A stretch of DNA of 36,282 bases from a virus, in UHGV virus genome UHGV-1360836, one strand, 5' to 3'. The notes beneath the pieces were generated by a model. That model worked only from the letters and a program-made list of their open reading frames with translations, made no database searches and was not told the DNA's origin. The translations under genes and the position numbers were made by a program. Every line of letters starts with the position of its first letter. Positions within the stretch are counted from its first letter, which is position 1. Shown here piece after piece: positions 1,054 through 32,132 of the stretch.

Positions 1054-1950
1054 ATGTATGAGGTAGCAACACAACAGAGTGGAGAAATGGTAAGTCGAAA
1101 TACACAGACAGAAATGATGATCAGCCGGCAGGCTCAGGAAGTGCAGGGCGCTATGGTGATCGCAAAGCGTTTTCCAAGAGATGAAGTAGAAAGCTTTAAC
1201 CGGATTATGCAGTCTTGTAAAAGGAAATCTCTTGCAGAGAGCGCAATGTATGAATATCCACGTGGGGGAACAAAAGTTTCCGGGCCCTCTATCCGTCTTG
1301 CCGAAGCAATGGCGCAGAACTGGGGAAATATTGATTTTGGAATTACGGAATTGGAGCAGAAAAATGGGGAGTCACAGGTTATGGCCTATGCGTGGGATTT
1401 GGAGACAAATACCCGTCAGGTCAAAATATTTAGTGTTCCGCATGTTCGCGGAACAAAGAAGGGAAATGTCCCGCTGACGGATCCGAGAGATGTTTACGAA
1501 ATGGTTGCAAATCAGGGAGCACGCCGGCTGCGTTCATGTATTTTGGGGATTATTCCCGGTGATGTTGTTGAAGCAGCAGTTAAACAGTGCGAGGACACGC
1601 TTATAAATGGAGAGAAAAAACCGTTGATTGATCTAGTACGAGATATGGCAGCAATTTTTCAAAATGAGTTTGGAGTACCATTGGATGCAATCGAAAAGTA
1701 CATTGGCTGTAAATCAGAAGCGTTCAGTATGCGAGATCTTGTCCGGTTAAAGAAAGTCTATACATCCCTGCGAGATGGCATGGCAAAACGTGAGGATGTC
1801 TTTGAACTATCGACACTTGTAGGCAATGAGACTGAAAGAGAGGTAAAAGATCCGTTTGCAAATCAGCAGAAGGACGGAAAAAGTTCCACAGCAAAACGAG
1901 GGGTGAAGAATGATGAGAATACAAAGAAAGCTGAGGCTGACACAGAGTAA
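1054..1950 (+). CDS. Putative phage recombination protein (single-strand annealing protein-like; family not resolved)
   Basis: 298-aa ORF with RBS AAAAGGAG. It sits immediately upstream of a PD-(D/E)XK nuclease gene, the usual SSAP-exonuclease pairing in phages. The family assignment is an inference from context only. Confidence 0.45.
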   Translation: MYEVATQQSGEMVSRNTQTEMMISRQAQEVQGAMVIAKRFPRDEVESFNRIMQSCKRKSLAESAMYEYPRGGTKVSGPSIRLAEAMAQNWGNIDFGITELEQKNGESQVMAYAWDLETNTRQVKIFSVPHVRGTKKGNVPLTDPRDVYEMVANQGARRLRSCILGIIPGDVVEAAVKQCEDTLINGEKKPLIDLVRDMAAIFQNEFGVPLDAIEKYIGCKSEAFSMRDLVRLKKVYTSLRDGMAKREDVFELSTLVGNETEREVKDPFANQQKDGKSSTAKRGVKNDENTKKAEADTE

Positions 1951-2671
1951 TTACTATTCCCCCGAAACGGATCAGCAGTATTTCTCTGTATCGCAATACA
2001 AAGATTTTATGAAATGCGAGGCTATGGCTATGGCGAAGCTTCGTGGTGAATATAAGCCAGCGATGACACGTGCCATGCTGACGGGATCTTTTGTAGATTC
2101 CTATTTTGAAGGAACATTAGACTTGTTTATAAACGAGCATCCAGCCGTGTTTACACAGAAGCAGGAGTTACGCAGTGAATTTAAGAAAGCGAATGAAATC
2201 ATTGCACGAATAAATCAGGACGATACATTCCTGCGGTTTATGTCGGGAGAAAAGCAAAGGATTATGACCTTCGAACTGTTTGGGTATCCGTGGAAGATGA
2301 AGATGGACAGCTATCTTCCCGGAATCTGCATTACTGATCTGAAAGTAGTGCAGAAATTCCGGACCCTTCCTCTGTGGCGGTATGACCTGCAGGGAGCTGT
2401 CTATCAGAAAGGTGTGGAGCTCGTTACCGGAGAACAGTTGCCGTTCTATTTGGCCGTAGCTACGAAAGAGCGGACGATTGATCTGGATATCTTCCAGATT
2501 ACGCAGCCGGTGCTTGATATTGCACTGCGTGAGATTGAGCAAAACATTGAACATTATGCACGTGTGAAATATGGCCAGGAGGAGCCGGTATACTGCGGGA
2601 AATGTGATTATTGCAAGAGCGTTAAGGAAGCTCGTATCAGGAATTATAGTGAGCTATTGGAGGGATTATAG
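1910..2671 (+). CDS. PD-(D/E)XK-superfamily nuclease (Cas4/RecB-like exonuclease with C-terminal Cys cluster)
   Basis: Contains a D...ITDLKVV (D-x-K) core and a C-terminal YCGKCDYC cysteine cluster. It overlaps the upstream gene, suggesting translational coupling. Confidence 0.55.
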   Translation: MMRIQRKLRLTQSNYYSPETDQQYFSVSQYKDFMKCEAMAMAKLRGEYKPAMTRAMLTGSFVDSYFEGTLDLFINEHPAVFTQKQELRSEFKKANEIIARINQDDTFLRFMSGEKQRIMTFELFGYPWKMKMDSYLPGICITDLKVVQKFRTLPLWRYDLQGAVYQKGVELVTGEQLPFYLAVATKERTIDLDIFQITQPVLDIALREIEQNIEHYARVKYGQEEPVYCGKCDYCKSVKEARIRNYSELLEGL

Positions 2672-7467: not shown

Positions 7468-7525
7468 AAAAAGAAAGGAGCCAGCCTCCGGCCGGGGCAA
7501 TGGTATACCGGGCTTCTTGCGAGAG

Positions 7526-8908
7526 ATGAAGAGAGATTTGATAATAGACTGCTTTGCCGGTGGAGGTGGGGCAAGCGTAGGAATTGAGATGGCGCTGGGG
7601 CGATCGGTCGATATTGCAATCAATCACGATCCGGATGCAATTCTGATGCATAAAACGAACCATCCGAATACATTACATCTGACAGAAGATATTTTTAGGG
7701 TGGATCTGAAAAAATATGTGAAAGGTCGGCATGTGGCTCTTATGTGGGCATCGCCGGACTGTACGAGCCATAGCAAGGCGAAAGGGGGGAAACCCCGTGA
7801 GAGAGGTCTAAGGATCCTTCCGTGGGCCGTGTATAAGCATACGAAGGCTATCCTACCGGATATAATCCTGATGGAAAACGTGGAAGAGATTCAACAGTGG
7901 GGCCCGCTTGACGCAGACGGACATCCGATCAAGGAGCGCCGCGGAGAGGATTATCAGAAGTTCATAACAGCCATGAAGTCTCTCGGATATGTATTTGACT
8001 GCCGGGAGCTTGTGGCAGCAGACTATGGAGCGCCTACAACACGGAAACGTTGGTACGCAATATTCCGGCGGGATGGTCGGGAGATTGTCTGGCCGGCACC
8101 GACACATTTCAAGGATAGAGAACCACACTGGAAGGCATGCGGAGATTACATAGACTGGTCTGATTTGGGACGGTCTATATTTGATAGACCGAAGCCACTG
8201 GCAGATGCGACTATGAAGCGAATTGCAAACGGAATTCGAAAATATATCATTGAAAATCCTGCACCATATATTGTAAAGGATGGGGGAAAACTGTTTGTTT
8301 CATATTTGGACAAGGCATATGGCGGGAATTATGCAGGCTGTGGGAGCGACTTGAGTAATCCGTGTAGTACTATAACAACTGTGGATCATAACCGACTTGT
8401 AACTGCATTTTTGATCCAATACCACGGAGAGACAAAGGCAGGAGAGTCCCGTGGGCAACTTCTGACGGAGCCAATAAAGACCATAGATACCAGCAATCGG
8501 TACGGACTCGTAACCGCATTTATTACAAAGTTCTATAAAAGCGGGATCGGACAGGAATGCGATGAACCGTTACACACCATTACAACATCGCCGGGGCATT
8601 TCGGACTGGTGAATGTAGTGTTGGATATTGAGGGGGGAAAGTATATCCTGAATGACATCTTCCTCAGGATGCTAAAACCGGAAGAACTGAAACTGATGCA
8701 GGGCTTTCCGAAGGATTACATCATTGACCGGGATTACAGGTGGAAATCATATCCGATTACAAAACAGGTGGCACGGATTGGGAACAGTGTTGTGCCGATT
8801 ATGGCACAGAAACTGGTAGGAGCAAACTGCCCGTATCTGAAGGTTGGAGAACGGTTGCCGAACTTCCGAACAGAGGAAGAAGGAAGTGGGCAGATTAGGT
8901 TTGTTTAA
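7526..8908 (+). CDS. DNA (cytosine-5)-methyltransferase, orphan, with non-canonical motif IV
   Basis: Motif I IIDCFAGGGGASVG, motif VI LMENVEE, motif VIII TRKRWYAIFRR and motif X IGNSVVPIMA. Motif IV reads SPDCTSHS instead of GPPCQGFS. A TTG start at 7517 is also possible. Confidence 0.75.
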   Translation: MKRDLIIDCFAGGGGASVGIEMALGRSVDIAINHDPDAILMHKTNHPNTLHLTEDIFRVDLKKYVKGRHVALMWASPDCTSHSKAKGGKPRERGLRILPWAVYKHTKAILPDIILMENVEEIQQWGPLDADGHPIKERRGEDYQKFITAMKSLGYVFDCRELVAADYGAPTTRKRWYAIFRRDGREIVWPAPTHFKDREPHWKACGDYIDWSDLGRSIFDRPKPLADATMKRIANGIRKYIIENPAPYIVKDGGKLFVSYLDKAYGGNYAGCGSDLSNPCSTITTVDHNRLVTAFLIQYHGETKAGESRGQLLTEPIKTIDTSNRYGLVTAFITKFYKSGIGQECDEPLHTITTSPGHFGLVNVVLDIEGGKYILNDIFLRMLKPEELKLMQGFPKDYIIDRDYRWKSYPITKQVARIGNSVVPIMAQKLVGANCPYLKVGERLPNFRTEEEGSGQIRFV

Positions 8909-19938: not shown

Positions 19939-20174
19939 AAACAGGAATTATAAAAAGAATAAGCCAGTATACCGGATTGAACTTTCGTGAGGTCTTGGAA
20001 CTGCCTTATTCTTTTTATTTGTTATTAAATCGGGAAAGCTGGATCGCAAGCTATCAATCGTCCGAAGCCGGAAGAGAAATACTAAAGAATTTGTGGAGGC
20101 TACAGCAGACCGAGGCGGATGAAGTCGCAATCCATAAATTCGCAGAAGGGAGACGAAAATGGCAGGAGGCATAA
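19764..20174 (+). CDS. Tail assembly chaperone T-part, expressed as a G-T fusion by -1 programmed frameshift
   Basis: The -1 frame is open from 19764 to 20174 with no ATG and overlaps the tape measure start. An A-AAA-AAA heptamer lies at 19767..19773, directly after the -1-frame stop TGA at 19761..19763. Confidence 0.5.
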   Translation, partial: DKKTSVRSSYPFDCGSISAAAESRYRPKLRIPVPEGEIGKAICEKYFPTENWERAYSLKTGIIKRISQYTGLNFREVLELPYSFYLLLNRESWIASYQSSEAGREILKNLWRLQQTEADEVAIHKFAEGRRKWQEA

Positions 20175-23100
20175 AATTAGCACCTCTTTTAACAGAGATC
20201 AAAGTTGATATCGAAAACTTTAAAAGCGATATGGAGAAAGCGGCTGCAATCGGAACAAGTGAAGCAAAGCGGATCAGTCAGGAGATGGAAACGACGGCGA
20301 AAGTCGGAGAAAAATTTTCTAAAGCAGGTGATCTGCTGACGAAAGGCTTGACACTTCCGATCGTGGGCGTAGGCGCCGCAACGACAAAAATGGCGGTTGA
20401 TTTTGAGAGCAGCTTTGCAAAAGTAAGTACACTTCTGGATTCAAATGTCGTAGATTTTGCGCAGTACAAAAATGAGCTTCTTAATGCAAGTAGTGAAACG
20501 AAGGTGGCGGTGGATGAATTTTCAGAAGCCGTTTACTCTTCTATTTCTGCCGGGGTGGATCAAAAAGAAGCGATCCAGTTCACGACGGATGCGATGAAAC
20601 TTGCAAAAGGCGGTTTTACAGACGGGGCGAAAGCAGTAGACGTCCTCACGACGGCAATTAACGCGTATGGATTGCAAGCGAGTGACGCCACGAGAGTATC
20701 CGATTTATTGATCACAACGCAGAATTTGGGTAAAACAACGGTGGACGAACTGGCGTCAAGCATGGGAACAGTGATCCCGGTTGCAAATGCGTCGAATTTC
20801 AGCATTGAGGAATTGAGTGCATCTTATGCACAGCTTACGAAAAACGGTGTGGCAACAGCGGAATCTGGAACGTATTTAAAAGCAATGTTGTCAGAGTTGT
20901 CAAAAAGCGGAAGTATTGCGGACATAACGCTACGGGAGCTGACCGGAAAAGGTTTTGCAGATCTGAAAAAAGAGGGGACGTCTACAACAGAGATTTTGAG
21001 TCTGTTAAATGCAGAGGCGCAAAAGAACGATAAGACTTTGAAAGATATGTTCGGCTCGGTGGAAGCAGGATCGGCGGCGTTGGTGCTGTATAAAAACAGC
21101 GGCGAAGAATACAACGAAATGCTGCGGGGAATGGAGACAAGCGCAGGGGCGACACAAAAGGCGTTTGAAAAAATAGATGCGACTCCGGCAGAACAGTTAA
21201 AAGGCGCATTGAATGAACTTCGGAACGAAGGAGTACGTTTTGGTGCAGCGTTTGTTCCGGTAATCGAGAAAGCGTCTGATATATTAGGGGATGTGGCAGA
21301 AGCATTTTCCGAATTAACAGATGAGCAGAAAGAGAATGTGGTGCAGTGGGGAATCACTCTTGCGGCAGCAGGACCGGCGTTAAAACTAATCGGCGGTGGG
21401 ATTCAAACCTATACCAAGTTAAAGACAGGAATAGGAGCAGTCACAAAAGCGCTTAGTGCTTTCGGTAGCGCACAAGAGGCAGCAGGAATAGGAGGATCTG
21501 TACTTGCAAAAAGCTTTACAGGTGTTTTGGGAACATGTGCACCCCTTGCGGCAGGTTTAGCAGTGGTTGGCGCCGGAGTATATACACTCCACGAGCAAAG
21601 CGATGTATTGAATTCCACAGTCCTTAAATCGCGAGAGGAAATGTCATGGCTGGAAGAAGCGCTGGCAGACCTGCAAGGAGTTACGAGGTACACGAAAGAA
21701 GAACTGGAAGAAATGGGGTATGTTCATAAGGAATTCAGCGATGAGTTAAGCCCTGAATTTCAGGAAGCCGTGGAAGAATCTACGAAAAAGGTACAAGAAT
21801 TCAGCGTGTACTTGCACGAGATCGGATTTGACGGAATCATGACACAGGAGGAAACCGATGGGTTTACGAAACGGGTCAATGACATGTGTAGCGAAGTGAT
21901 CTCGACGATCGAAAGCAGAAAAGAGGAGGCACAAAGCGGACTGAAAGATCTGTTCATCGCAGATGATCAGGTGATTGATGAAAGCGAACAGAAAGTACTG
22001 GAACTGTTGTCGCAATCAAGTGATGCGCAGATCAGTGAAGTACAGACGTTACAAGATGAAATTCTTGCGATCCAGCAAAATGCAGCGAATGAAAAACGAC
22101 AGTTGAATGAGCAGGAAATCGCAGACATCCAAAATTATAATGAACAGATACGTCAGATTGAACTGGAAGCCCTGGGAGGAACAGAGCAGGAGATTCTTTA
22201 TGCAAAAAATGAGTTTGCTGCTCGAGTGCGAACGATGGATCTGGAAAGTGCATCGGAACTTTTACAAGAGAAAGCGAAGATCCGAGATGATGAGATCGTA
22301 CAGATACAAGCAGCTTACGATACAGAAATTCAGTTGCTGCAAAGTAAACTTAGCACATGCAAGGAAGAAGATCGGGCGTATTATGAAGAACAGATCGCAA
22401 ATTTAGAGCAGGACAAGCAGAAAAAGATTACAGAACAGCGTGACCTTTACGATGAATACCTCAGCATTATCGAAGAATATAACCCGAAATTACTGGATGG
22501 AATCAGCGACTTGAATGGTCAGATCCTCACAGGAGAGGAGGAAAGGAATGCTGAATATCTGCAAAAGGTACAGGAAAGGTATGCGGGGTTAGAGCAAATT
22601 ACAGAGTCAGGATGTTATACCCTATATAACATGGAAAAAGGCACGAATGAAGATATCGTGGTCAATTATGATCAGGCAACAGGGAAGATCGTCGGTCTCT
22701 ACCACGAAGCGTCTTCAACACTCGTCGGATATTCCAAGGAAATCCAAGGCGCGACGGTGGAAATGGCGCTGAACGGAAAAGGGTCTTTTGAGATGCTGGG
22801 AACATCCTTAGATGGACTGAAAGAGAAGAACGGTGAACTCGTCAATGCGAATGGGGATGTTGTGAGCTCCTTGTCGGACATTAAAAAGTCTGCAGACGGC
22901 ACGCGGGAAGGAATTGCGATTTTAAACGGAACACCTTGTGAGGTAAAGGTTAATAAAGACGGAACAATCGCAGATTTACGGGCGATTGATGAGGAGGCGA
23001 ACAACGCCACGAGAGCGAGGACACTGTCGATCACATTAGCAACGAACGCAATAACAAGTGGCATTAACGCTGCGATTTCAGCAGCGCAGGGATATTCTCA

Positions 23101-23332
23101 CTATAACGGACTTGATAACGTACCTTACGACGGATATCAGGCAGTGTTGCACAAAGGAGAGCGTGTCCTGACAGCAGAGGAGAACAAGGCGTATAGTAAC
23201 GATCCGGGGATTGATTACAATAAGATGGAAAAGTGTATGAAATCTGCGGTCAGGGAACTTACTTTATCAGTGGGCAGCAGGGAACTCGGCAGAATTATGG
23301 ATGAGCATTTGCGAGAAAGGGGGATTCTGTAA
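20159..23332 (+). CDS. Tail tape measure protein
   Basis: 1057 aa, Ala/Gly-rich with coiled-coil segments, TP901-like N-terminus. RBS GAAGGGAGA upstream. Confidence 0.85.
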   Translation: MAGGIKLAPLLTEIKVDIENFKSDMEKAAAIGTSEAKRISQEMETTAKVGEKFSKAGDLLTKGLTLPIVGVGAATTKMAVDFESSFAKVSTLLDSNVVDFAQYKNELLNASSETKVAVDEFSEAVYSSISAGVDQKEAIQFTTDAMKLAKGGFTDGAKAVDVLTTAINAYGLQASDATRVSDLLITTQNLGKTTVDELASSMGTVIPVANASNFSIEELSASYAQLTKNGVATAESGTYLKAMLSELSKSGSIADITLRELTGKGFADLKKEGTSTTEILSLLNAEAQKNDKTLKDMFGSVEAGSAALVLYKNSGEEYNEMLRGMETSAGATQKAFEKIDATPAEQLKGALNELRNEGVRFGAAFVPVIEKASDILGDVAEAFSELTDEQKENVVQWGITLAAAGPALKLIGGGIQTYTKLKTGIGAVTKALSAFGSAQEAAGIGGSVLAKSFTGVLGTCAPLAAGLAVVGAGVYTLHEQSDVLNSTVLKSREEMSWLEEALADLQGVTRYTKEELEEMGYVHKEFSDELSPEFQEAVEESTKKVQEFSVYLHEIGFDGIMTQEETDGFTKRVNDMCSEVISTIESRKEEAQSGLKDLFIADDQVIDESEQKVLELLSQSSDAQISEVQTLQDEILAIQQNAANEKRQLNEQEIADIQNYNEQIRQIELEALGGTEQEILYAKNEFAARVRTMDLESASELLQEKAKIRDDEIVQIQAAYDTEIQLLQSKLSTCKEEDRAYYEEQIANLEQDKQKKITEQRDLYDEYLSIIEEYNPKLLDGISDLNGQILTGEEERNAEYLQKVQERYAGLEQITESGCYTLYNMEKGTNEDIVVNYDQATGKIVGLYHEASSTLVGYSKEIQGATVEMALNGKGSFEMLGTSLDGLKEKNGELVNANGDVVSSLSDIKKSADGTREGIAILNGTPCEVKVNKDGTIADLRAIDEEANNATRARTLSITLATNAITSGINAAISAAQGYSHYNGLDNVPYDGYQAVLHKGERVLTAEENKAYSNDPGIDYNKMEKCMKSAVRELTLSVGSRELGRIMDEHLRERGIL

Positions 23333-24169
23333 ATGGATGTGTATTACATTAATCATTTAAACGAAAAGATTCTCCTCGACTCTGAAAATGTGATTCTGAA
23401 GTATCAAGAGTTATTCAACTATTCATGGGATGCAGATACAGATAATGGGAAAATAACGTCATTTACAAGAGAAATGGCCACATATCCCATTACGGTTACT
23501 GTAACCGCGGATTCAGATGAGGAATTTGCGGACATCCTGAATAATTTCCACAGCATCGTTGTAAAAGACATCATAAACCACAAACCGGGGCGGCTGTATA
23601 TTGGAGATCAGTATTTGTCCTGCTATATATCCGGCGATATAAAAACGGATGCGTTTATGGGTGTTCCGATACAGGTTAAAAATCTTACCGTTGTGACGGA
23701 TCATCCGTTTTGGATTCACGAGGTATCAAGATCTTTCCAGCAGATTATATCGGGGGATGATCCAGAGGGGCATTTAGATTATGAGTATGATTTTAACTAT
23801 GATTACACAATGCCATATGGCAGTGATTTGATTTGGACAGTAGATCATTTTGCCCCCTGCGAATTTCTTCTGACGGTTTTCGGGCCTGTGACAGATCCGA
23901 TGATCTTAATTAATGGACATCCGTATCAAGTTTATACATCTCTGGACGAGAATGATTACATGCAGATCAATAGCCGGAATAATACGATTGTTAAATATAG
24001 GTCGGATGGAGTCCGACAGGATATTTATGATTCCCGAGCAAAGCAACAGTCAGTATTCGATCTGATTGCGCCGGGAAATATCCGTGTTGTTTGGCCAGGA
24101 AGTTTCGGCTTCGATCTTAAATTATACTGCGAAAGGAGCGAGCCGAAATGCAAGACGAAAGGCAGTTGA
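23333..24169 (+). CDS. Distal tail protein (Dit)
   Basis: 278 aa, directly after the tape measure gene (stop and start adjacent). Confidence 0.6.
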   Translation: MDVYYINHLNEKILLDSENVILKYQELFNYSWDADTDNGKITSFTREMATYPITVTVTADSDEEFADILNNFHSIVVKDIINHKPGRLYIGDQYLSCYISGDIKTDAFMGVPIQVKNLTVVTDHPFWIHEVSRSFQQIISGDDPEGHLDYEYDFNYDYTMPYGSDLIWTVDHFAPCEFLLTVFGPVTDPMILINGHPYQVYTSLDENDYMQINSRNNTIVKYRSDGVRQDIYDSRAKQQSVFDLIAPGNIRVVWPGSFGFDLKLYCERSEPKCKTKGS

Positions 24170-25152
24170 TCCTTGCGGATCAGAATTTCCGGGATATCCG
24201 TCCAGTGATGGGAGCGGAAATTGATATGGCGATTGGATCGGATGAAAACGACTATGAAATCAAGATTCGGCGCGATCAGTGGGATGACCGATATAAGTAT
24301 GGGAATGTGTTTTACATCAATGATACAGAGTTTGGCGGTATTATCGGGAGGAAGAAGATAAACACGACAGACAGCACAATATCTTTATTTGGCAGGACGT
24401 GGAGAGGAATGTTGGAAAAGAAAATCATTCGTCCACCCGGCGGGCAGGATTATAAGAAAGTATCCGGTGAACTGAATACAGTGTTAGATGGTCTGATCAC
24501 AGACTGTTTCGGTGATTATTTTGTTGTATCTCGAAGCGATACGGGAATATTTGTAACTGATTATCAATTTGATAGGTACTGTACTTTACTGGCAGGTCTT
24601 ACAAAGATGTTAAAAAGTGTCGGGCATCGGTTACAGATACGGTATGTACAGCAGGAGAGAGGGCAACCCGGATACGTGGAATTGTCGGCAGTACCGATTG
24701 AGGACTACTCGGAAAAAATTGAACTGTCACAGGACAGCCGGCTGAACTTTACATTTGATGAAAATAAAAACGGGATCAATCATTTGATTTGTCTTGGAAA
24801 AGGTGAATTGCAGGATCGGCAGGTGATTGATCTGTATGTCCAGGAGGACGGCAGTATTGGCAGAGATTTGTTTTATACAGGAATCAGGGAAGTTTGTGGA
24901 GTATATGAAAATACGTCAGCAGAGCGTGATGAGCTGGAAGAAAAAGGAAGAGAAAAGCTGGCGAAGCTTATGAACAGAACTATTTTTGAAATGAATGTTG
25001 AGCAGTTAAAAATGAATGTTGAGATTGGGGATATTATCGGCGGGCGTGATTACGACACTGGGATGTATGCGGCAAAGCCGATTGCAAAAAAGATTTACCG
25101 GGTAGCGGGAGGAAAGACCTCTCTTGAATATAAAGTAGAAGGAGATGATTAA
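24148..25152 (+). CDS. Tail-associated protein (Tal/gp27-like N-terminal domain)
   Basis: 334 aa, after Dit. RBS GAAAGGAGCG upstream. Confidence 0.5.
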   Translation: MQDERQLILADQNFRDIRPVMGAEIDMAIGSDENDYEIKIRRDQWDDRYKYGNVFYINDTEFGGIIGRKKINTTDSTISLFGRTWRGMLEKKIIRPPGGQDYKKVSGELNTVLDGLITDCFGDYFVVSRSDTGIFVTDYQFDRYCTLLAGLTKMLKSVGHRLQIRYVQQERGQPGYVELSAVPIEDYSEKIELSQDSRLNFTFDENKNGINHLICLGKGELQDRQVIDLYVQEDGSIGRDLFYTGIREVCGVYENTSAERDELEEKGREKLAKLMNRTIFEMNVEQLKMNVEIGDIIGGRDYDTGMYAAKPIAKKIYRVAGGKTSLEYKVEGDD

Positions 25153-25154
25153 TT

Positions 25155-26027
25155 ATGGAATTAGTAACAGGAAGATCGGGGAAGCCGCACATCACATCAC
25201 AGCAGGTTCGGCAGCTTCAACAGGGTATTTTTGGGGCGAATGCCTGTATCCTTAATACGGGAAGTATGCTGACACCGGAAGTGCAGAGCTCAAATAAAAT
25301 CCGTATCAAAGATGGCGCGCTGATGTTTCAGGGTGCTCTCTTTACTGTTAAAGTTGGGGGTTACGATGAGGTAACTATCAACAATGGTAATCAAGGAATG
25401 AAGAGAAAAGATGTGATTGCAGTCAAATATACATATGACTCGTCACGAAACATTGAGTCAGGAGAATGGGCGGTTGTGCAGGGTACGCCAGCGGCAAGTA
25501 ATCCGGCAGTGCCTAGTATGCCAGTAACGGATGGAGATATTCAGGCGGGTGATGCAGAAGTGTATTGTCCGGTATTTGTAATTAATTTGGATGGGATAAA
25601 TGTTACGGGCGTCGATATCATACCTCCGATGATGGATGATATGTCTACGATAAATAAATATTTGTCGGAGTTGCAGTCGTATCACGATAAAAAGACGCTC
25701 ACACCAACCGATCTGGGAATAAGAGCAGGAGTGTGGAAAGCCACAGCAAACAACTCGTATAAAATCGGTAAAACGGTGCATCTAAACATGGAAATCTATA
25801 CAACTGCCATAATAGTCGCAAACAACGTGTACGACAATGTTTTTTCGATACCGTCACAGTATCGCCCATTAAATGACACTGTTGTAAATGTAGTGGCATC
25901 AGACGGGGCGTATAAAAACCCAGTCACTTGTACATCTATGGCAAGGACAAATGGAAATTTGTTTGTCTGCATCCCAAAAGCTACAAATAATTATCTTTTT
26001 ATCGATGCGGAGTGGGAAGTCGGATAG
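25155..26027 (+). CDS. Tail fibre / receptor-binding protein: constant N-terminal part up to 25672 plus variable C-terminal domain V1
   Basis: 290 aa after Tal. It contains the 21-bp repeat 25652..25672 (coding NKYLSEL), whose inverted copy lies at 26398..26418. Confidence 0.6.
   Translation: MELVTGRSGKPHITSQQVRQLQQGIFGANACILNTGSMLTPEVQSSNKIRIKDGALMFQGALFTVKVGGYDEVTINNGNQGMKRKDVIAVKYTYDSSRNIESGEWAVVQGTPAASNPAVPSMPVTDGDIQAGDAEVYCPVFVINLDGINVTGVDIIPPMMDDMSTINKYLSELQSYHDKKTLTPTDLGIRAGVWKATANNSYKIGKTVHLNMEIYTTAIIVANNVYDNVFSIPSQYRPLNDTVVNVVASDGAYKNPVTCTSMARTNGNLFVCIPKATNNYLFIDAEWEVG
25652..25672. repeat. Inverted repeat, left copy (candidate recombination crossover site inside the fibre gene)
   Basis: AAATAAATATTTGTCGGAGTT is a perfect match to the reverse complement of 26398..26418. 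Confidence 0.8.
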
Positions 26028-26033
26028 ATCTAA

Positions 26034-26417
26034 TCACTTCCAGGTACCTCGAGCATAGTAAGATAAATCAAAACTTGCTACATTCCAGGTCACAGCAGAA
26101 AGCAGATGGTATGAAAAGCTTGATTTGTAGCCATTTGCAGATCCGTACACCTTGCCCCATATCGCGCCGCCAGCTCCTATTGTGAGCACGATATTACATT
26201 TTGTTTTTGATGCAACCGGGAAGTTTAATGTAAATTGTCCGCTTGTGTAAATGCTACCGGCTTTTGTTCCGATCGCGCATGTAAACGGCGAATTGAACCA
26301 CATTTCGAGAGTCCCGTCGCTCCATTTGCGATATTTACCGTTGGAGTTGCTACCTTCTTCAACGATGTAGTTTTTTATTTTTGTAAAATCAGATGATAAC
26401 TCCGACAAATATTTATT
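26034..26417 (-). CDS. Silent alternative tail-fibre C-terminal cassette V2 (no own start), beginning at the right inverted repeat
   Basis: The minus-strand ORF is open through the repeat and encodes KNKYLSEL in the same codon phase as the plus-strand gene, then a distinct 120-aa Gly/Ser/Thr/Tyr-rich domain ending at 26034. No convincing RBS or start of its own. Confidence 0.5.
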   Translation of the reverse strand, partial: NKYLSELSSDFTKIKNYIVEEGSNSNGKYRKWSDGTLEMWFNSPFTCAIGTKAGSIYTSGQFTLNFPVASKTKCNIVLTIGAGGAIWGKVYGSANGYKSSFSYHLLSAVTWNVASFDLSYYARGTWK

Positions 26418-26418
26418 T
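26398..26418. repeat. Inverted repeat, right copy
   Basis: AACTCCGACAAATATTTATTT is the reverse complement of 25652..25672. Confidence 0.8.
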
Positions 26419-26453
26419 TTCCAAAAGATTAAGATAAGAAAGGACTGATATTT

Positions 26454-27152
26454 ATGAAGCTTATTTTTAATGATGCAACCGAGATTGTTGTTCAGCAGGT
26501 TGAATCCCACGGGGATTACCTGCGAATACTGACGGTTGGAAATACTCCGGAACAGTTAAAGGTGCTGTTTACTGACTCTAGTCGGACAGCCCGCATGATT
26601 GTACAGGAGCGAGGGCAGACCGTAGCTGCGTATGAGGGATATACAGCATTTTACAGGACGGAGATTTATACCGGGAAGATTTACGGCGTGGTGATGTACA
26701 AGCAGGAAACCCTTCCGGAAACGCAATCGCAGATGATTCAGGCCGCTATGCTGGTTGCACAGATGCAGGCACAGACATTTGATGATGAGCGGGCGCAGGC
26801 AGTCAAAATACTCTATCCGCAGTGGCAAGATGTAATAGGGCAGACTGTTGAGAAGAAAGGGTATAAGTTTGTGTATGAGGATGTGCTGTATAAGACAATT
26901 CAAGATAACTTACTAATCCAAGAGCAGTATATTCCAGGCGATGGAACAGAGAGCATGTATGTTGTTATTGATGAGACTCATGCCGGCACGCAGGAGAATC
27001 CGATTCCGTATGCGGGCAATATGGAGTTGGAAAAGGGCAAATATTACATCCAGGATGGAGTAATCTATCTGTGTAATAGAGATACAGAAAACCCAGTGTA
27101 TCATAATTTAAGAGATTTGATCGGGTTGTATGTAGAGAAGGTGGCAGAATAA
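26454..27152 (+). CDS. Hypothetical tail-associated protein (XkdW-like position)
   Basis: 232 aa, downstream of the fibre region. Followed by a 47-aa XkdX-like ORF. Confidence 0.45.
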   Translation: MKLIFNDATEIVVQQVESHGDYLRILTVGNTPEQLKVLFTDSSRTARMIVQERGQTVAAYEGYTAFYRTEIYTGKIYGVVMYKQETLPETQSQMIQAAMLVAQMQAQTFDDERAQAVKILYPQWQDVIGQTVEKKGYKFVYEDVLYKTIQDNLLIQEQYIPGDGTESMYVVIDETHAGTQENPIPYAGNMELEKGKYYIQDGVIYLCNRDTENPVYHNLRDLIGLYVEKVAE

Positions 27153-27324: not shown

Positions 27325-28233
27325 ATGAGTGAAATAACAAGAGCTTATGCCGTATATAAAGGACAACAGTATAATGCGTCATACGATTCTGGAACACAGT
27401 TATGGGATGTAGATATCCCATCAGGATCAGAGTCGTCTTATGGGCAGGTGAATCATACATATCCGATTGAGCTACATGCCTTTGATGCAGCTAACAATGA
27501 GACAATCATGTATGCCACCGATTCCAAGTATGGAGATCAGTTAAACATCCGTGTACTTGAAAAAACGAAACCGACTGCATCGATTATATCCCCGACACAA
27601 GGATCGGTTCTTGGATCGGCAACGCAGGATATAAAGATGGAGCTTCAAGATGCAGGTGGATCCGGTCTTAACATGACGTCTGTAATCTTCAAAGTTAATA
27701 GTGTTCAGGTTACACAGGGCGTGTCATGGACAGATCAGGGCGGCAAGAAAGTATGTACCTATCGTGCAGCCAACTTGTCCGATGGTTCTAATAGCGTTAG
27801 TCTGCAGGTAACGGATAATGATGGCAATATATCCGATGTCGCGACTGTGGCCTTTGTGATTAGTACTTCAGCGCCAACACTGAATGTAACGAGTCCAACC
27901 GAAGGGTTATTGACGAACAGCAATAGGGTTACCGTAGCTGGTACTGCTGCGGCTGGATCTGATGCGGTAACGCTTACAAGCGTTAAGATTAACGGAGAAG
28001 TCGTGTCCTTTGGATCAGGTGGGGCGTTTAGTAAGGAGATTACGCTTAGAGAAGGCGAGAATGAAATCACAGTAGTTGCAGAGGACAGCATCGGAAAGAC
28101 TACATCTGTTACGAGACATGTCACAGTTGATACCAAAGCGCCGATTATATCTGACGTCGAAGCAGAAGCGACCACGGTAAACGCAAATGGTATGATTCGC
28201 TTATCCTTTAAGATTGTAGATCCGGCAGATTGA
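27325..28233 (+). CDS. Ig-like (Big-type) domain structural protein
   Basis: Repeated Ser/Thr/Val-rich beta-sandwich-like segments (VTVAGTAAAGSDAVTLTSVKINGEVV...). Confidence 0.5.
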   Translation: MSEITRAYAVYKGQQYNASYDSGTQLWDVDIPSGSESSYGQVNHTYPIELHAFDAANNETIMYATDSKYGDQLNIRVLEKTKPTASIISPTQGSVLGSATQDIKMELQDAGGSGLNMTSVIFKVNSVQVTQGVSWTDQGGKKVCTYRAANLSDGSNSVSLQVTDNDGNISDVATVAFVISTSAPTLNVTSPTEGLLTNSNRVTVAGTAAAGSDAVTLTSVKINGEVVSFGSGGAFSKEITLREGENEITVVAEDSIGKTTSVTRHVTVDTKAPIISDVEAEATTVNANGMIRLSFKIVDPAD

Positions 28234-28888: not shown

Positions 28889-28915
28889 GAGATATGACCA
28901 CATAGAAATCAGAGC

Positions 28916-28942
28916 AAGACCGTAACAGGTCTTATTTTTATG
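28916..28942 (+). terminator. Rho-independent terminator
   Basis: Stem AAGACC/GGTCTT with loop GTAACA, followed by ATTTTTATG. Confidence 0.6.
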
Positions 28943-28968
28943 TATAAATTAAAAGAAGGGAGACTTAT

Positions 28969-29181
28969 ATGCCAGACACAGTTGTAGTCGCTGTTTTGTC
29001 CTTGCTCGGAACGCTGATCGGAAGCTTCGGGGGTACACAGCTTATCAAATATAGGATAGAGCAGCTTGAAAAGAAAGTGGAAAAACATAACTCTGTTGTA
29101 GAACGGACGTATTTGTTGGAGGAAAAAATAAAAGTAGCGAATCATCGTATTGATGATTTGGAAAGGAAGGTAGAGGAATGA
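28969..29181 (+). CDS. BhlA/UviB-like holin-family protein (N-terminal TM helix plus coiled-coil)
   Basis: TM helix VVVAVLSLLGTLIGSFGG followed by the heptad-like RIEQLEKKVEKHN...IDDLERKVEE. RBS AAGGGAG upstream. Confidence 0.55.
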   Translation: MPDTVVVAVLSLLGTLIGSFGGTQLIKYRIEQLEKKVEKHNSVVERTYLLEEKIKVANHRIDDLERKVEE

Positions 29182-29414
29182 AGGACAGAGAATATTGGAT
29201 AAAATGGAGTAAAGCGGCTGGGATAAGAGCCGTGAAAACAATAGCCGAGACAGCGATATCTTTAATCGGAGCAGATATGGTAAATATCGTATCTCTTGAC
29301 TGGGTGAATATTGCAGGAGTATGTGCAACAGCCGGAGTTATATCATTACTGATGAGCTTAAAAGGATTGCCGGAAGTGAATGTGCCGGAGTATAGAGATT
29401 CAGAGGGCGAGTAA
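29178..29414 (+). CDS. Holin
   Basis: 78 aa with two hydrophobic helices (AISLIGADMVNIVSL, IAGVCATAGVISLLMSL). Located directly upstream of the endolysin gene. Confidence 0.6.
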   Translation: MKDREYWIKWSKAAGIRAVKTIAETAISLIGADMVNIVSLDWVNIAGVCATAGVISLLMSLKGLPEVNVPEYRDSEGE

Positions 29415-29428
29415 CACCGCCCTCTTTT
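29403..29428 (+). terminator. Hairpin plus T-tract overlapping the holin stop (possible attenuator or terminator)
   Basis: Stem GAGGGCG/CGCCCTC with an 8-nt loop that contains the TAA stop, followed by TTTTG. Confidence 0.35.
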
Positions 29429-29450
29429 GTGTGGAAGAAAGGAGAAGAAC

Positions 29451-30464
29451 ATGGCAAATTTAAGAGTAATCGATGTAAGCGAACATCAAGGGTCTATTAA
29501 CTGGAATGCAGTAAAAGGACATATTGATGGGGCAATCTTACGATGCGGATATGGAGATAATATTGCGAGTCAAGATGATAAGCAGTGGAAAAGAAATGCA
29601 GATGAATGTACAAGACTTGGGATTCCGTTCGGAGTATATATCTATTCCTACGCGACAAGTGACGCACAGGCGAGAAGCGAAGCGGAACACGTCCTTAGAT
29701 TGATAAGCGGATATAAACTTTCGTACCCAATTTATTTAGATTTGGAGCAGGCCGGAACGGAAACAGGAGCAATACAAAGAGCAAATATCTTCGGAGACAT
29801 TATCGAAAACGCTGGATACTGGTGCGGAGTTTACGCCAATACAAATTGGTGGACAAACTACCTTGTAGGATTGGAACGGTTTGTAAAATGGGTGGCACAG
29901 TATAATTCGGTCTGTACATATCAGGGCACATATGATATCTGGCAGTATACGTCAGGCGGATCTGTTCCGGGAATTTCCGGAAACGTGGATATGAATCATT
30001 GTTATAGAGATTATCCAGCAGAAATTACAGGAGGGGATACAAAACCGACGCCGCCGGCAGTAGCACCATCTGGATCTACGCTTGATCTTGTTGTTGGAGT
30101 TATGCAGGGAAAATATGGAGACGGAGACGCTAGAAAAAATGCTCTGGGAAATCGGTATAATGAGGTGCAGAATATGATTAACTATATTGCATCTGCCTCC
30201 GTAGATACACTTGTGAAAGAAGTTTATGCGGGAAAATATGGAAATGGAGACTCAAGAAAAGCAGCTCTGGGAAATCGGTACAACGAGGTGCAGAACAAGA
30301 TTGATGTTTCTTCCGGCGGCGCAGTTTATTACACAGTGCAATCTGGGGACACATTATCTGGAATTGCTGCTAAGTATGGTACAACGTATCAGTATCTTGC
30401 AGGCCTGAATGGGATTGTTAATCCGAATTTGATTTATGCGGGACAAAAGATCCGAGTAAAATAA
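29451..30464 (+). CDS. Endolysin: GH25 muramidase, two CW_7 repeats and a C-terminal LysM domain
   Basis: GH25 N-terminus [30 protein letters not shown]. Two 40-aa repeats [23 protein letters not shown]-terminal [19 protein letters not shown]...IYAGQKIRV. Confidence 0.85.
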
Positions 30465-30472
30465 TAAATTTA

Positions 30473-30494
30473 CCCCGGAGTATTAGCTCCGGGG
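30473..30494 (+). terminator. Terminator hairpin after the endolysin gene
   Basis: 8-bp stem CCCCGGAG/CTCCGGGG with loop TATTA. Confidence 0.5.
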
Positions 30495-30593
30495 TGGAAT
30501 ATTGTATCATCTTCATACATTATATAAAGAAGTAACAGTTGTAGGTTTTTACGTTAAGGATACCTTATAGGGATATAAAATAATTTGTATGTT

Positions 30594-30624
30594 GTTACGA
30601 AAAGGTTGACCTTTTTGTTATAAC
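30594..30624. other. Imperfect 31-bp palindrome; candidate attP core or arm for the serine integrase
   Basis: GTTACGAAAAGG-TTGACC-TTTTTGTTATAAC. It is nested in an outer inverted repeat CAGTTGTAGGTT (30535..30547) / AACCTACAAAACTG (30622..30635). It lies between the convergent endolysin and int genes with no host DNA. Confidence 0.35.
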
Positions 30625-30650
30625 CTACAAAACTGCGAAAACCCTTGATT

Positions 30651-32132
30651 TTACTGGGATTCCGGCGCATAGTAGTAATAAACTTTCAGCTCATCTTTTG
30701 AGCGATCATATATAATCTTTTCTATCACGCTCTTTAGGATTTCATTTTTGGTTACAGGATCCACAGAGTCAGATTCTATGATTTCATATACATTTCTTAC
30801 TTTTTCCAACATAGCGATTTTAGAAGTATCAATAGTAGGTTCTGCTGGTTTTATGTCTGCAAGCTGCTTTTCCAGCATCTCTTTTTCTTCCTGAACCATG
30901 CGCTTATTTTCTTTATATTCGTCAAGTGTATCTACTCCATTACGGTACGCTTCTCTGATGCGGTCAAATTTTTCCGCATTCTTTCTTAACTGCTCCGTAA
31001 TAATGACGTTTAGATCCACAGAAGTTTCCTGCACCGGTTCAACGTGCCTGTAGATGATGTTGCCAGTGTCCAGAACTTCTTTTATAGATGCAAGTACCGC
31101 CGGTTCTAACCTTAACGAGCTTACAGATGTTTTTGCAAGGCATTTTCCTTTTGAGTACCCATAGCATGTAAAATAGCAGTATGATTTTTGGTTATTTACT
31201 GTTTTGGCAATCATGGTTCTTCCGCATACAGGGCACTTCATAAGACCTGATAGCCAATGTTTGTATGTAGAGGATGGTCTGGTGCCGGATGGTTTGTATT
31301 CGCTTTTGTAACGGATCTGCGCTTTGTCAAATAATTCTTTAGATATAATAGCAGGTTGCTGACCATCAGAGACAATCCATTCTGATTCCGGCCGGATTTC
31401 GTTTGTTTCGCTTACGGTACGGTTCCACCGGATCATACCGCAGTAAGTTGGGTTCTGTAAGATGTATTCAATAGATCTGCGTTCAAACGGTTTGTTGTGA
31501 GATGTTTTAAACCCACACAAATTTAGATAGCGTGCTATGTCGAATATTCCGGTATGTTCATTTACATATTTATCAAATATGATTTTAATTATTTCAGCTT
31601 CTTCCGGTACAATAACGGGAGGTTTTCCGCGCTCTTGGATTTTATATCCAAGCGGAGGACGCGCCTGATAGCCGCCGCGTTTTGCCTTTTCTGTCATCCC
31701 TCGTGTCACTTCGCCGGAAAGACGGACAGAATAGTACTCGTCCATCCATTCAATGATGCGCTCGATCAAAGAGCCGAACGGACCGTCTACAAGCGGCTCG
31801 GAAACGCTCAAGACTTCTACGTTGTGCTTCTTCTTTAAAAGAGATTTATAAACAATAGACTCTTCCTGATTTCTTGCAAATCGACTGAATTTCCACACGA
31901 TGATACAATCTACAGGATGTTTGTCTGATTTCGCAAGAGCGATCATCTTTTGAAACTCCGGACGCTTGTCAGCTTTCCGACCGGAAATACCGAGCTCATA
32001 AAAGATTTGCAGGACAATCATATCGTTCTTTTTAGCAAAGTCTTTCAACAGTTTTGCCTGCGAATCAGGAGAGAGCTCTTCTTGGCCGGATGTGGATACC
32101 CTAACATAACCATAACAATATTTAGTTTTCAT
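30651..32132 (-). CDS. int: Large serine recombinase (phage integrase)
   Basis: N-terminal catalytic domain YGYVRVSTSGQ with the conserved serine, followed by a long recombinase/zinc-ribbon C-terminal region. 493 aa. Confidence 0.85.
   Translation of the reverse strand: MKTKYCYGYVRVSTSGQEELSPDSQAKLLKDFAKKNDMIVLQIFYELGISGRKADKRPEFQKMIALAKSDKHPVDCIIVWKFSRFARNQEESIVYKSLLKKKHNVEVLSVSEPLVDGPFGSLIERIIEWMDEYYSVRLSGEVTRGMTEKAKRGGYQARPPLGYKIQERGKPPVIVPEEAEIIKIIFDKYVNEHTGIFDIARYLNLCGFKTSHNKPFERRSIEYILQNPTYCGMIRWNRTVSETNEIRPESEWIVSDGQQPAIISKELFDKAQIRYKSEYKPSGTRPSSTYKHWLSGLMKCPVCGRTMIAKTVNNQKSYCYFTCYGYSKGKCLAKTSVSSLRLEPAVLASIKEVLDTGNIIYRHVEPVQETSVDLNVIITEQLRKNAEKFDRIREAYRNGVDTLDEYKENKRMVQEEKEMLEKQLADIKPAEPTIDTSKIAMLEKVRNVYEIIESDSVDPVTKNEILKSVIEKIIYDRSKDELKVYYYYAPESQ

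Follow-up and report, generated by a model that had tools for sequence, protein, structure and literature searches.

Tail-fiber inversion switches are textbook cases for phages Mu and P1. The sites used by Gin/Cin-type enzymes are 26-bp dyads with a 2-bp core, and the Fis-dependent enhancer normally lies within the invertase gene. To our knowledge, such switches are almost undocumented in phages that infect Gram-positive commensals of the gut. Within the literature searched, the only such case that we found is Rin, which carries its own invertase: in this shufflon of Bifidobacterium prophages, several Rv cassettes alternate with 11-nt rix sites, and the gene of a tyrosine invertase, rin, lies next to them (Mavrich et al. 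2018, PMC6109161). The same paper reports, in the Bifidobacterium prophages Bb423phi2 and 689b-1, a segment of ∼500 bp that is inverted between related prophages and takes in a small convergent gene together with the 3′ end of a gene in the tail region; the repeat is very short (8 nt, CAGGGTTA), no recombinase flanks it, the locus is known from two genomes and its genes are of unknown function, and the authors proposed that the invertase is supplied in trans (PMC6109161).

Our literature search found no description of the switch presented here, which lies in a 36,282-nt stretch of the virus genome UHGV-1360836 (the window). We think it probable that a temperate siphophage of [Ruminococcus] torques, a mucin-degrading species of the human gut, and of related Lachnospiraceae here carries a working two-state inversion switch within the gene for its receptor-binding protein (RBP), and that the recombinase is not linked to the switch. 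The parts of the locus, with the gene downstream and the phage integrase gene, are as follows.

25649..25672, plus strand: left inverted repeat, a 24-nt arm that is exact over 21 nt at 25652-25672
26398..26421, minus strand: right inverted repeat, exact over 21 nt at 26398-26418, with the core at 26404-26418 and the dyad center at 26412-26413
25155..25672, plus strand: constant part of the RBP gene, residues 1-173, a predicted beta-rich N-terminal "shoulder" and neck helix MSTINKYLSEL
25673..26027, plus strand: cassette A (QSYHDKK...AEWEVG, stop codon included), the head domain that the window expresses
26034..26397, minus strand: cassette B (SSDFTKIKNY...YYARGTWK), the second head, silent in the window, convergent on A and lacking a start codon
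26454..27152, plus strand: downstream gene of 232 aa with its own ribosome-binding site, outside the segment and not part of the switch
30651..32132, minus strand: large serine recombinase (phage integrase) of 493 aa, with Pfam domains Resolvase, Recombinase, and Zn_ribbon_recom and a match to phrog_95 integrase

An earlier note on this DNA had described a 21-bp inverted repeat that codes for NKYLSEL within the gene, and on re-check of the sequence the repeat, its coding, and its coordinates all held. AAATAAATATTTGTCGGAGTT occupies 25652-25672 and its exact reverse complement 26398-26418; the arms extend to 24 nt at 96% identity, with one mismatch (25649-25672 and 26398-26421), and 725 nt lie between them. 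The 21-mer had zero matches in any shuffle of the window sequence, and the window held no further copy of the 15-nt core when up to 2 mismatches were allowed. Read in codon phase from 25653, the left repeat is AAT AAA TAT TTG TCG GAG TT(G), or NKYLSEL, residues 167-173 of a 290-aa protein. Translation confirmed the start-less minus-strand reading frame that the note had proposed: it reads ..WKNKYLSEL SSDFTKIKNY.. in the same phase and continues, convergent on the expressed gene, as a 120-aa domain to a stop codon at 26034-26036. No ATG start was found for this domain, and the sole upstream start reported was a GTG within the next gene. Cassette B as an independent gene, which the note had named as evidence against a switch, was not what we found, as it has neither a start of its own nor a promoter-like excess. 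The stop codons of A and B are separated by 6 nt, and the two cassettes, which have no detectable sequence similarity to each other (BLASTP E = 0.19), fill the 725 nt. The outer half of the right repeat is non-coding and lies upstream of the gene at 26454..27152. This gene is present and collinear in relatives that join the constant part to cassette A (A form), in those that join it to cassette B (B form), and in single-cassette relatives, and it is read through in either orientation of the segment.

The product had been labeled a tail fiber. A siphophage RBP fits better than a fiber, as judged from the structure model. As with the baseplate RBPs of the lactococcal phages p2, 1358, and TP901-1, the gene follows TMP-Dit-Tal, and the product is likewise modeled as a two-domain beta protein with a helical neck and a lectin-like head; the modeled arrangement of shoulder, helix, and head resembles the RBPs of 1358 and p2. 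According to this model, the repeat would encode the helix between the protein's two domains. The complete A form has an end-to-end match to phrog_13141, and cassette B matches the C-terminal 113 positions of tail-fiber phrog_2712 (E = 3.4e-15). Cassette B was modeled as a beta-sandwich (residues 184-293) that resembles the R1 pyocin fiber tip and H-type lectins. A single-sequence AlphaFold model of the A form (pLDDT 31) gave no usable head fold, and a PDB sequence search with both protein forms returned nothing usable. The dN/dS ratio was 0.13 for cassette A and 0.23 for cassette B; the latter is intact and was silent in both sequences compared, and the silent cassette is thus under purifying selection. 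The two heads may bind different receptors, and the switch would therefore change the host range.

It had also been predicted that inversion of 25673..26397 would fuse the constant part in frame to the second head, and this exact protein exists. Residues 1-173 plus cassette B correspond to P0001 at 100% identity and 100% coverage, on 494 contigs, and the loci are precise inversions between the same repeats; the NCBI entries of P0001 are from "bacterium MSK18_59," with near-identical entries from [R.] torques. The exact A-form protein of the window was found on 137 contigs and includes WP_370797412.1 of [Ruminococcus] torques. The search returned 1,295 homologs. Eight B-form loci (L067-L074) had identical repeats and the 725-nt segment exactly reversed, and eight A-form loci (L075-L082) matched the window arrangement. 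Switching on near-identical backbones was recurrent: L072 (B) and L076 (A), which come from different samples, match at all 15,333 nt of their flanks and throughout the segment once it is re-oriented, and L070 (B) and L082 (A) had 11 differing positions. A neighbor-joining tree of the flanks of these 16 loci required at least 7 orientation changes, with the nearest flank neighbor in the opposite orientation for 10 of the 16. Because these phages are mosaic, homologous exchange of modules between co-resident phages could explain part of this scatter. Both orientations occur in three diverged lineages with different cassette pairs; lineage 2 has 15 nt of identity between its sites (L003-L005 vs L017), and lineage 3 has 13 nt (L034 vs L059).

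Within-sample support for both orientations consisted of one hybrid contig end and contig breaks. At the end of contig L034, 55 nt are the reverse complement of the contig's own N-terminal end plus the core, so that one assembly holds both the N|A and the N|D junctions, and contig L018 breaks exactly where the shared core ends. A scan of genome contigs yielded seven loci, all in MAGs of Mediterraneibacter or Lachnospiraceae, most of them truncated close to the joint. With a degenerate junction pattern, 7 contigs (4 A, 3 B) were recovered from JGI/ENA metagenome contigs, each from a different sample and thus never both forms in one, and blastn of 25155-26453 against the INPHARED phage genomes gave no match. 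A second phage backbone with the same cassettes has a mismatched core (CA vs CG), and hence an imperfect repeat; 19 loci of this backbone were fetched, and all 16 complete loci with both sites had a single orientation.

Comparisons between lineages mapped the crossover to at most 13-15 nt, AAATA-AA-TATTTGT. At the left site of the window, AAATAAATATTTGTC (25652-25666) is the core, at most 15 nt long, and the dyad AAATA-AA-TATTT within it is centered on AA at 25657-25658. The crossover could be delimited because in lineage 2 (L004/L005 vs L017) the inner parts GTCACAATT and GTCGGAGTT move together with the segment, and it was narrowed by lineage 3 (L034 vs L059), whose two sites have only AATACATATTTGT in common. 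The core forms a 5+2+5 dyad, or 9+2+9 with one mismatch at the left site; the 5+2+5 dyad is A/T-rich and may have arisen by chance. Coding constraint accounts in part for the conservation of the left repeat, as single-cassette relatives retain NK(D/Y)LSEL. In every lineage with two cassettes, the non-coding outer half of the right site retains this core, and it changes in step with the left site (AA, AA plus G, CA, and GCA across lineages). In the deletion derivatives L016 and L019, the left flank is joined to the right flank at this same A/T-rich core, and L170 has a 4-nt slip within it. The truncated protein P0059 was considered as a second ("TT") deletion junction, which, if real, would have argued for cleavage at the central dinucleotide; it was rejected, as its contig (L169) runs into unrelated DNA and an ABC-transporter gene. 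A likeness of the site to Xer/dif arms was judged coincidental, the arm being in the wrong orientation.

With the crossover mapped, the locus can be set beside the described systems. It shares several features with Mu G, P1 C, e14 P, and p15B Min (Gin, Cin, Pin, and Min): short inverted repeats within the open reading frame of a tail gene, in-frame joining of a constant 5′ portion to one or another 3′ portion when the segment inverts, the natural occurrence of the two states, and a presumed role in switching between modes of host recognition. The earlier note had assigned the locus the architecture of Mu G and P1 C; it works likewise, as the existence of the fusion protein shows, but it is not a member of the family, because it has no Gin-type invertase, no chaperone genes in the segment, and no evident gix-like site. 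A ∼190-aa serine invertase adjoins the segment in the Gin, Cin, Pin, and Min systems, whereas the phage studied here has none, and the segments of those systems contain chaperone (fiber-assembly) genes where this one has only two head cassettes. In addition, the host is Gram-positive, and the phage is a siphophage whose protein is, by the model, like a baseplate RBP and not a long fiber. The core AAATA-AA-TATTTGT bears no evident resemblance to the gix, hix, and cix sequences. The Rin shufflon also has a constant N-terminal RBP part related to the RBP of lactococcal phage 1358, but the present locus differs from it in having two cassettes, a different core, and no adjacent recombinase, and the rix site TTCCCTAACCC is absent from the window. 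Also absent from the window is the 8-nt repeat CAGGGTTA of Bb423phi2 and 689b-1. In contrast to that locus, the gene here models like an RBP, its products are found on hundreds of contigs, switching is recurrent, the crossover has been mapped, and the integrase has been tested and set aside.

The gene encodes a constant part (residues 1-173), by the model a shoulder and neck, and the last seven neck codons (NKYLSEL) form one repeat arm; after a further 725 nt comes the other arm, where the convergent cassette, which lacks both a promoter and a start codon, begins. In the mechanism that we propose, a reciprocal exchange inside the core of at most 13-15 nt would invert the segment and join the constant part in frame either to head A or to head B, which is unrelated to A and modeled as lectin-like, leaving the other head parked antisense, and the downstream genes would remain in the transcript in both orientations. 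The exchange is presumably catalyzed by a recombinase that is site-specific, because the core is short and conserved in non-coding DNA and switching is recurrent. Its gene would lie elsewhere than at the switch, most likely in the host genome, because the phage offers no candidate and the integrase does not fit. Our tentative suggestion, which we hold to be possible but short of an even chance, is a chromosomal, trans-acting host recombinase, RecV/Mpi-like or Xer-like, that recognizes AAATA-NN-TATTTGT. Enzymes of the RecV/Mpi type mostly flip promoters or host surface genes, and we know of none that acts on a phage RBP gene or has been linked to this core. RecV of Clostridioides difficile is a single chromosomal recombinase that flips several unlinked segments (PMC5903667), as does Mpi of Bacteroides fragilis according to the citation in PMC6109161. 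By analogy, these enzymes may serve as a working model for the catalyst here, whose host is, like C. difficile, a member of the Clostridia.

Searches of the window's open reading frames against Pfam and PHROG identified the 493-aa serine integrase, 4.2 kb from the switch, as the only recombinase in the window and detected no tyrosine recombinase there, in agreement with the earlier statement that no small invertase is encoded nearby. Across 89 related loci, no recombinase other than an integrase was found within 6-10 kb of the switch, and tblastn with the serine catalytic domain gave nothing else near it. That the integrase doubles as the invertase on both repeats is nevertheless hardly credible. 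It belongs to the serine class, as do Gin and Cin; the core is a small dyad with a 2-nt center, as in serine recombinase sites; and 99%-identical copies lie on contigs of both A-form (L002/L092) and B-form (L040/L091) phages. However, a 99% copy is also present in a single-cassette phage (L014/L084), and the substrates of large serine integrases are an attP and an attB, rather than two sites of the same kind. The attP, delimited by comparison with the attL of L168 and the attR of L068 and other loci, is ACGAAAAGGT-TG-ACCTTTTTGT (30597-30618), and neither its half-sites nor those of attB resemble the switch core CGAYAAATA-AA-TATTTRTCG. Moreover, prophages with an identical switch end in a different attR with a tRNA-3′-like core at 7 of the 16 loci (2 B, 5 A), and the viral contig L171 has a tRNA-type attP 10 nt from the gene of a 360-aa tyrosine integrase; both orientations therefore arise without the serine integrase. 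The argument hinges on the attR, since a 100%-identical tyrosine integrase was not found on one viral contig with a two-cassette switch, only on the single-cassette contig L009/L171 and on fragments from the same metagenomes. At the tRNA-type attR, ARAGORN detected no complete tRNA, only a 3′ fragment.

Two explanations do without any invertase. Homology-driven or replication-associated recombination between the 21- to 24-nt repeats, via RecA of the host or the recombination genes that the phage itself carries (PDDEXK exonuclease, 1910..2671, and its neighbor, 1054..1950), is in our estimate unlikely. It would account for the failure to find an invertase, the phage does encode a DUF3799 PDDEXK nuclease and RusA, and the L016 and L019 deletions and the L170 slip look like illegitimate events; the repeat would then exist only because both cassettes must start with the same neck-helix codons, and the left repeat is indeed coding and conserved even in single-cassette relatives. 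Such codons leave the conserved, co-varying outer half of the right site unexplained, however, and identities of 13 or 15 nt, far below what efficient homologous exchange needs, still accompany both orientations in two lineages. A single-base core difference goes with one fixed orientation at the 16 complete loci of the second backbone, and switching is faster than point mutation (0 differences in 15.3 kb). Very unlikely, in turn, is a fossil, in which one or a few ancient inversions produced two arrangements that now spread among mosaic prophages by homologous recombination of the whole tail-tip module, with nothing flipping today. The same structural module does occur with different lysis and integration modules, the chimeric contigs L051 and L185 join different backbones via shared cassettes, no sample in the metagenome scan had both junctions, and the related backbone looks frozen; fossil status may fit that second backbone, with its imperfect repeat and single orientation. 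For the lineage of the window, L072 and L076 are identical except for the inversion, and import of a module would need donors identical on both sides. The recurrent changes on the flank tree, the presence of both states in each of three lineages with different cassette pairs, the hybrid end of L034, which points to coexistence in one assembly, and the intact silent cassette under purifying selection also speak against a fossil. Among the three catalysts that the earlier note had allowed, the integrase is thus now unlikely, absence of any catalyst is contradicted for this lineage, and a host-encoded enzyme is favored, as we infer from what the phage lacks.

The prophage carrying this switch is very common in [R.] torques, and the invertase gene is missing from the phage. 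If a host invertase is responsible, a phase-variation enzyme of the bacterium would set which receptor is targeted by the resident prophages that it releases, and it would act across prophages with different integrases and head-cassette pairs. A host-driven RBP switch of an invertase-less phage would couple phage and host in a new way in the Gram-positive lineages that are most abundant in the gut, and its 13-15-nt site would be portable for the engineering of switchable RBPs. For finding a trans-acting Lachnospiraceae invertase, the 725-nt flip with its mapped 13-15-nt core offers a clean assay. Two heads per genome have to be allowed for when the host range of these phages is predicted, and in viromics pipelines a single phage will come out as two "strains," or its contigs will break at the switch. 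In catalogs, the two protein forms appear, across hundreds of contigs, as "hypothetical proteins" unrelated to each other.

We re-examined the sequence around the receptor-binding protein (RBP) gene at 25155..26027 and found the repeat coordinates, the NKYLSEL reading phase and the convergent 120-aa minus-strand domain all as the earlier note had described them.

Features of the RBP region and of the integration site in the window
20159..23332, tape-measure protein (gene order and PHROG matches)
23333..24169, Dit (gene order and PHROG matches)
24148..25152, minor tail protein (gene order and PHROG matches)
25652-25672, plus strand, left inverted repeat AAATAAATATTTGTCGGAGTT (sequence search of the window)
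26398-26418, right inverted repeat, exact reverse complement of AAATAAATATTTGTCGGAGTT (sequence search of the window)
30597-30618, attP of the serine integrase, quasi-palindrome ACGAAAAGGT-TG-ACCTTTTTGT, between the endolysin and integrase genes

The repeat arms are spaced 725 nt apart and reach 24 nt with one mismatch when extended in a repeat search. The 21-mer was absent from every shuffle of the window, and no second copy of its 15-nt core occurs elsewhere in the window at ≤2 mismatches. The repeat codes NKYLSEL, residues 167-173 of the RBP, and the minus-strand reading in the same phase runs through ..KNKYLSEL into a different 120-aa domain ending at 26034, which places the two stop codons 6 nt apart. 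No sequence similarity was detectable between the two C-terminal cassettes, A (25673..26027, expressed in the window) and B (26034..26397, minus strand, silent). The RBP gene follows those for the tape-measure protein, Dit and the minor tail protein. The full-length A form matches phrog_13141 end to end, its residues 1-181 and 1-220 match PHROGs whose members carry other C-termini, and cassette B aligns with the last 113 positions of a tail-fibre PHROG. Since the gene downstream of the switch has its own ribosome-binding site, the operon should be readable in either orientation; no promoter-like or terminator-like excess was found in or around the segment. An exact 14-nt direct repeat, AAATGAATGTTGAG, occupies 24989-25002 and 25010-25023 (spaced 21 nt apart), close to the 3′ end of the minor tail protein gene that immediately precedes the RBP gene. 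Two genes downstream of the switch, 27325..28233 encodes a 302-aa protein with the Ig-like domains Glucodextran_B, Big_13 and Big_7, which aligns to positions 2202-2491 of a 3,825-position PHROG profile and may be a second, unswitched host-contact protein.

The earlier note had proposed that inversion fuses the N-terminal 173 aa in frame to the alternative domain. We built this fusion (residues 1-173 plus cassette B) in silico and used it as a protein query. The predicted protein exists (P0001, 100% identity over 100% of its length), and in eight long contigs that encode it the two repeats are unchanged and the 725-nt segment is exactly reversed, which bears the proposal out; eight contigs encoding the A form are arranged like the window. 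The collection lists P0001 on 494 contigs; its NCBI entries come from 'bacterium MSK18_59', and near-identical proteins come from [Ruminococcus] torques. The window's own A-form protein is listed on 137, including an R. torques RefSeq protein. Between the prophage loci L072 (B form) and L076 (A form), which come from different samples, there were 0 mismatches across 15,333 nt of phage flanks, and 0 in the segment once re-oriented, and thus the inversion is their sole difference. A neighbour-joining tree of the flanks of 16 prophage loci (L067-L074, B form; L075-L082, A form) required at least 7 orientation changes, and for 10 of the 16 the nearest neighbour had the opposite orientation, so switching is fast relative to point mutation; part of this scatter could come from module exchange, because the phages are mosaic.

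Orientation also varies in two diverged lineages with other cassette pairs. In lineage 2, with flanks 98.5% and 92% identical to those of the window, L003-L005 carry the segment one way and L017 the other. In lineage 3 (N-terminal domain ~50% identical to that of the window), the expressed head is A-like in L034, where a head 'D' is parked, and D in L059, where the A-like head is parked. The terminal 55 nt of contig L034 repeat, in reverse complement, its own N-terminal end and core, as expected from a k = 55 assembly graph holding both junctions in one data set, and contig L018 stops at the last base of the shared core. These two contig ends are the only evidence that both orientations coexist within a sample; in a scan of metagenome contigs (4 A, 3 B), the two junctions were never found together in one sample. 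We conclude that the switch of RBP heads in this common human-gut Lachnospiraceae prophage is genuine and flips recurrently.

The parked cassette was intact in the lineages inspected and had a dN/dS of 0.23 between two genomes where it is silent; the value for cassette A was 0.13. In other phages, the N-terminal 173 aa (84-100% identity) are joined to at least 3 further unrelated heads (P0046, P0051, P0056, P0066 and others), giving proteins of 279, 288 and 294 aa, and locus L015 has yet another cassette pair with 701-nt spacing. Across the population there is a library of heads, of which each genome has two.

The diverged lineages also delimit the crossover site. The lineage 2 arms differ in their inner parts (GTCACAATT vs GTCGGAGTT), which travel with the segment and so place the exchange within AAATAAATATTTGTC, window 25652-25666; in lineage 3 the two sites have only AATACATATTTGT in common. 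Inside the core is a dyad, AAATA-NN-TATTT, with its central AA at 25657-25658; at the left site, one mismatch allows it to reach 9+2+9. Although the right site's outer half is non-coding, the core is preserved there, and its changes track those at the left site from lineage to lineage (AA, AA with a downstream G, CA, GCA). The same two cassettes, at 89% identity, recur on a second phage backbone, whose 220-aa RBP has a different N-terminus. Between the cores of this backbone there is a one-base difference (CA vs CG), and all 16 complete loci carrying both sites, among 19 fetched, have one orientation; core identity thus goes with flipping.

Derivatives with altered sites were also seen. Two phages of different lineages (L016 6468-6557 and L019 6468-6557; IMG/VR 3300045988_070883 and _022684) lack the whole invertible segment (window 25652..26418), the left flank being joined to the right via a single core copy, ..GAT-AAATA-AA-TATTT-TTCC.., and the RBP cut to 176 aa ending ..INKYFSKRLR*. 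Such a junction would be expected if the sites exchanged while paired in the 'wrong' direction about the near-palindromic core; it cannot be built from k-mers of either orientation and is therefore probably a real molecule. The B-form prophage L170 (about 3487-3540; ENA ERZ28598827 scaffold_1031) has a 4-nt deletion in the left core, AAATAAATATTT to AAATATTT, that shifts the RBP frame after residue 167 (protein P0057, a cluster of 35 sequences) and leaves the right site intact; it may reflect slippage or imprecise recombination at the crossover site.

Pfam and PHROG scans of ORFs found a single recombinase in the window, a 493-aa large serine integrase (30651..32132), in agreement with the earlier statement that no small serine invertase or tyrosine recombinase is encoded nearby, and tblastn of 89 related loci with serine and tyrosine recombinase queries found, within 6-10 kb of the switch, no recombinase other than integrases. 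A host enzyme, the integrase or no catalyst at all had been the options put forward. We defined attP of the integrase by comparing the window with a prophage junction, and its half-sites are unrelated to the switch core. The corresponding attL is in L168 and attR in 8 of the 16 prophage loci; 7 other loci with an identical switch (2 B, 5 A) end in a different attR with a tRNA-3′-like core, and directly after the same tRNA-type attP region in viral contig L171, within 10 nt, comes a 360-aa tyrosine integrase gene. Judging from attR, neither integration module seems tied to one orientation, which speaks against the serine integrase as the invertase. Non-enzymatic inversion through short homology is less likely, as inversion is still seen with 13-nt cores, conservation extends to the non-coding arm, and a mismatch of one base between cores accompanies a single fixed orientation. 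The most plausible catalyst would be a host-encoded enzyme, a recombinase encoded elsewhere that would flip the segment in trans. RecV of Clostridioides difficile is a precedent for a host-encoded enzyme (PMC5903667), and for a Bifidobacterium prophage locus that lacks a recombinase, one supplied in trans has been proposed (PMC6109161). The switch itself provides a direct way to assay for the missing enzyme.

Tail-fibre inversion itself is textbook. The architecture had been likened to the Mu G and P1 C segments, and the likeness holds for a constant 5′ part with alternative 3′ parts swapped by inversion inside an ORF, but the adjacent small serine invertase and the chaperone genes within the segment are absent, and the core, a 5+2+5 dyad, has no sequence resemblance to gix; since these are three defining features, we do not file the switch as a family member. 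The nearest Gram-positive relative in kind is the Rin shufflon of Bifidobacterium prophages, which has a 1358-like constant part in common with it but brings a tyrosine invertase of its own, along with several cassettes and a distinct 11-nt site (PMC6109161) that is absent from the window. The closest analogue is a second, recombinase-less inversion from two genomes in the same paper (PMC6109161); the present switch is far better supported, with the integrase tested and set aside. Earlier systematic surveys placed tail-fibre inversions mainly in Proteobacteria (PMC9881135, PMC5903667), and no description of this switch was found in the paper library searched. For specialists, it would be moderately surprising to find a switch that lacks its own invertase, and that seems to be driven in trans, so widely among phages of gut Firmicutes.

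Two contigs, L051 (IMG/VR 3300029460_000168) and L185 (ERZ773155 NODE_5006, with the junction in inverted orientation), join a window-type phage to the second backbone (L041 type) via the shared cassettes. They are either assembly chimeras from two-phage samples or real recombinants; whichever their origin, shared cassettes break or mislead assemblies. The L168 attL sits beside a 315-aa ORF on a 2.1-Mb contig, and attR in L068 and others adjoins a PG_binding_1 ORF and leuS; a host gene therefore seems to be split by integration. The window itself resembles the phage's circular or excised form. Modules are mosaic: the structural and RBP module is joined in the window (28900-30650) to a GH25-LysM endolysin plus the serine integrase, and in L067-L082 (about 13800-16450) to HicA/HicB plus an Amidase_2 endolysin, the right ends there being of two kinds, the serine-integrase attR and a tRNA-type attR tied to a tyrosine integrase. 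Among prophages that share the early gene, at least 3 serine integrase types occur (463, 493 and 510 aa). The 298-aa early protein at 1054..1950 (phrog_3657, of unknown function) adjoins a DUF3799 PDDEXK nuclease, and the contig collection lists its exact sequence in 7,224 blocks, far above the RBP forms, which indicates an early module very widespread among gut prophages. The early region also encodes two DNA methyltransferases of the C-5 cytosine (PF00145) and D12-class N6-adenine (PF02086) types, at 7517..8908 and 9880..10710.
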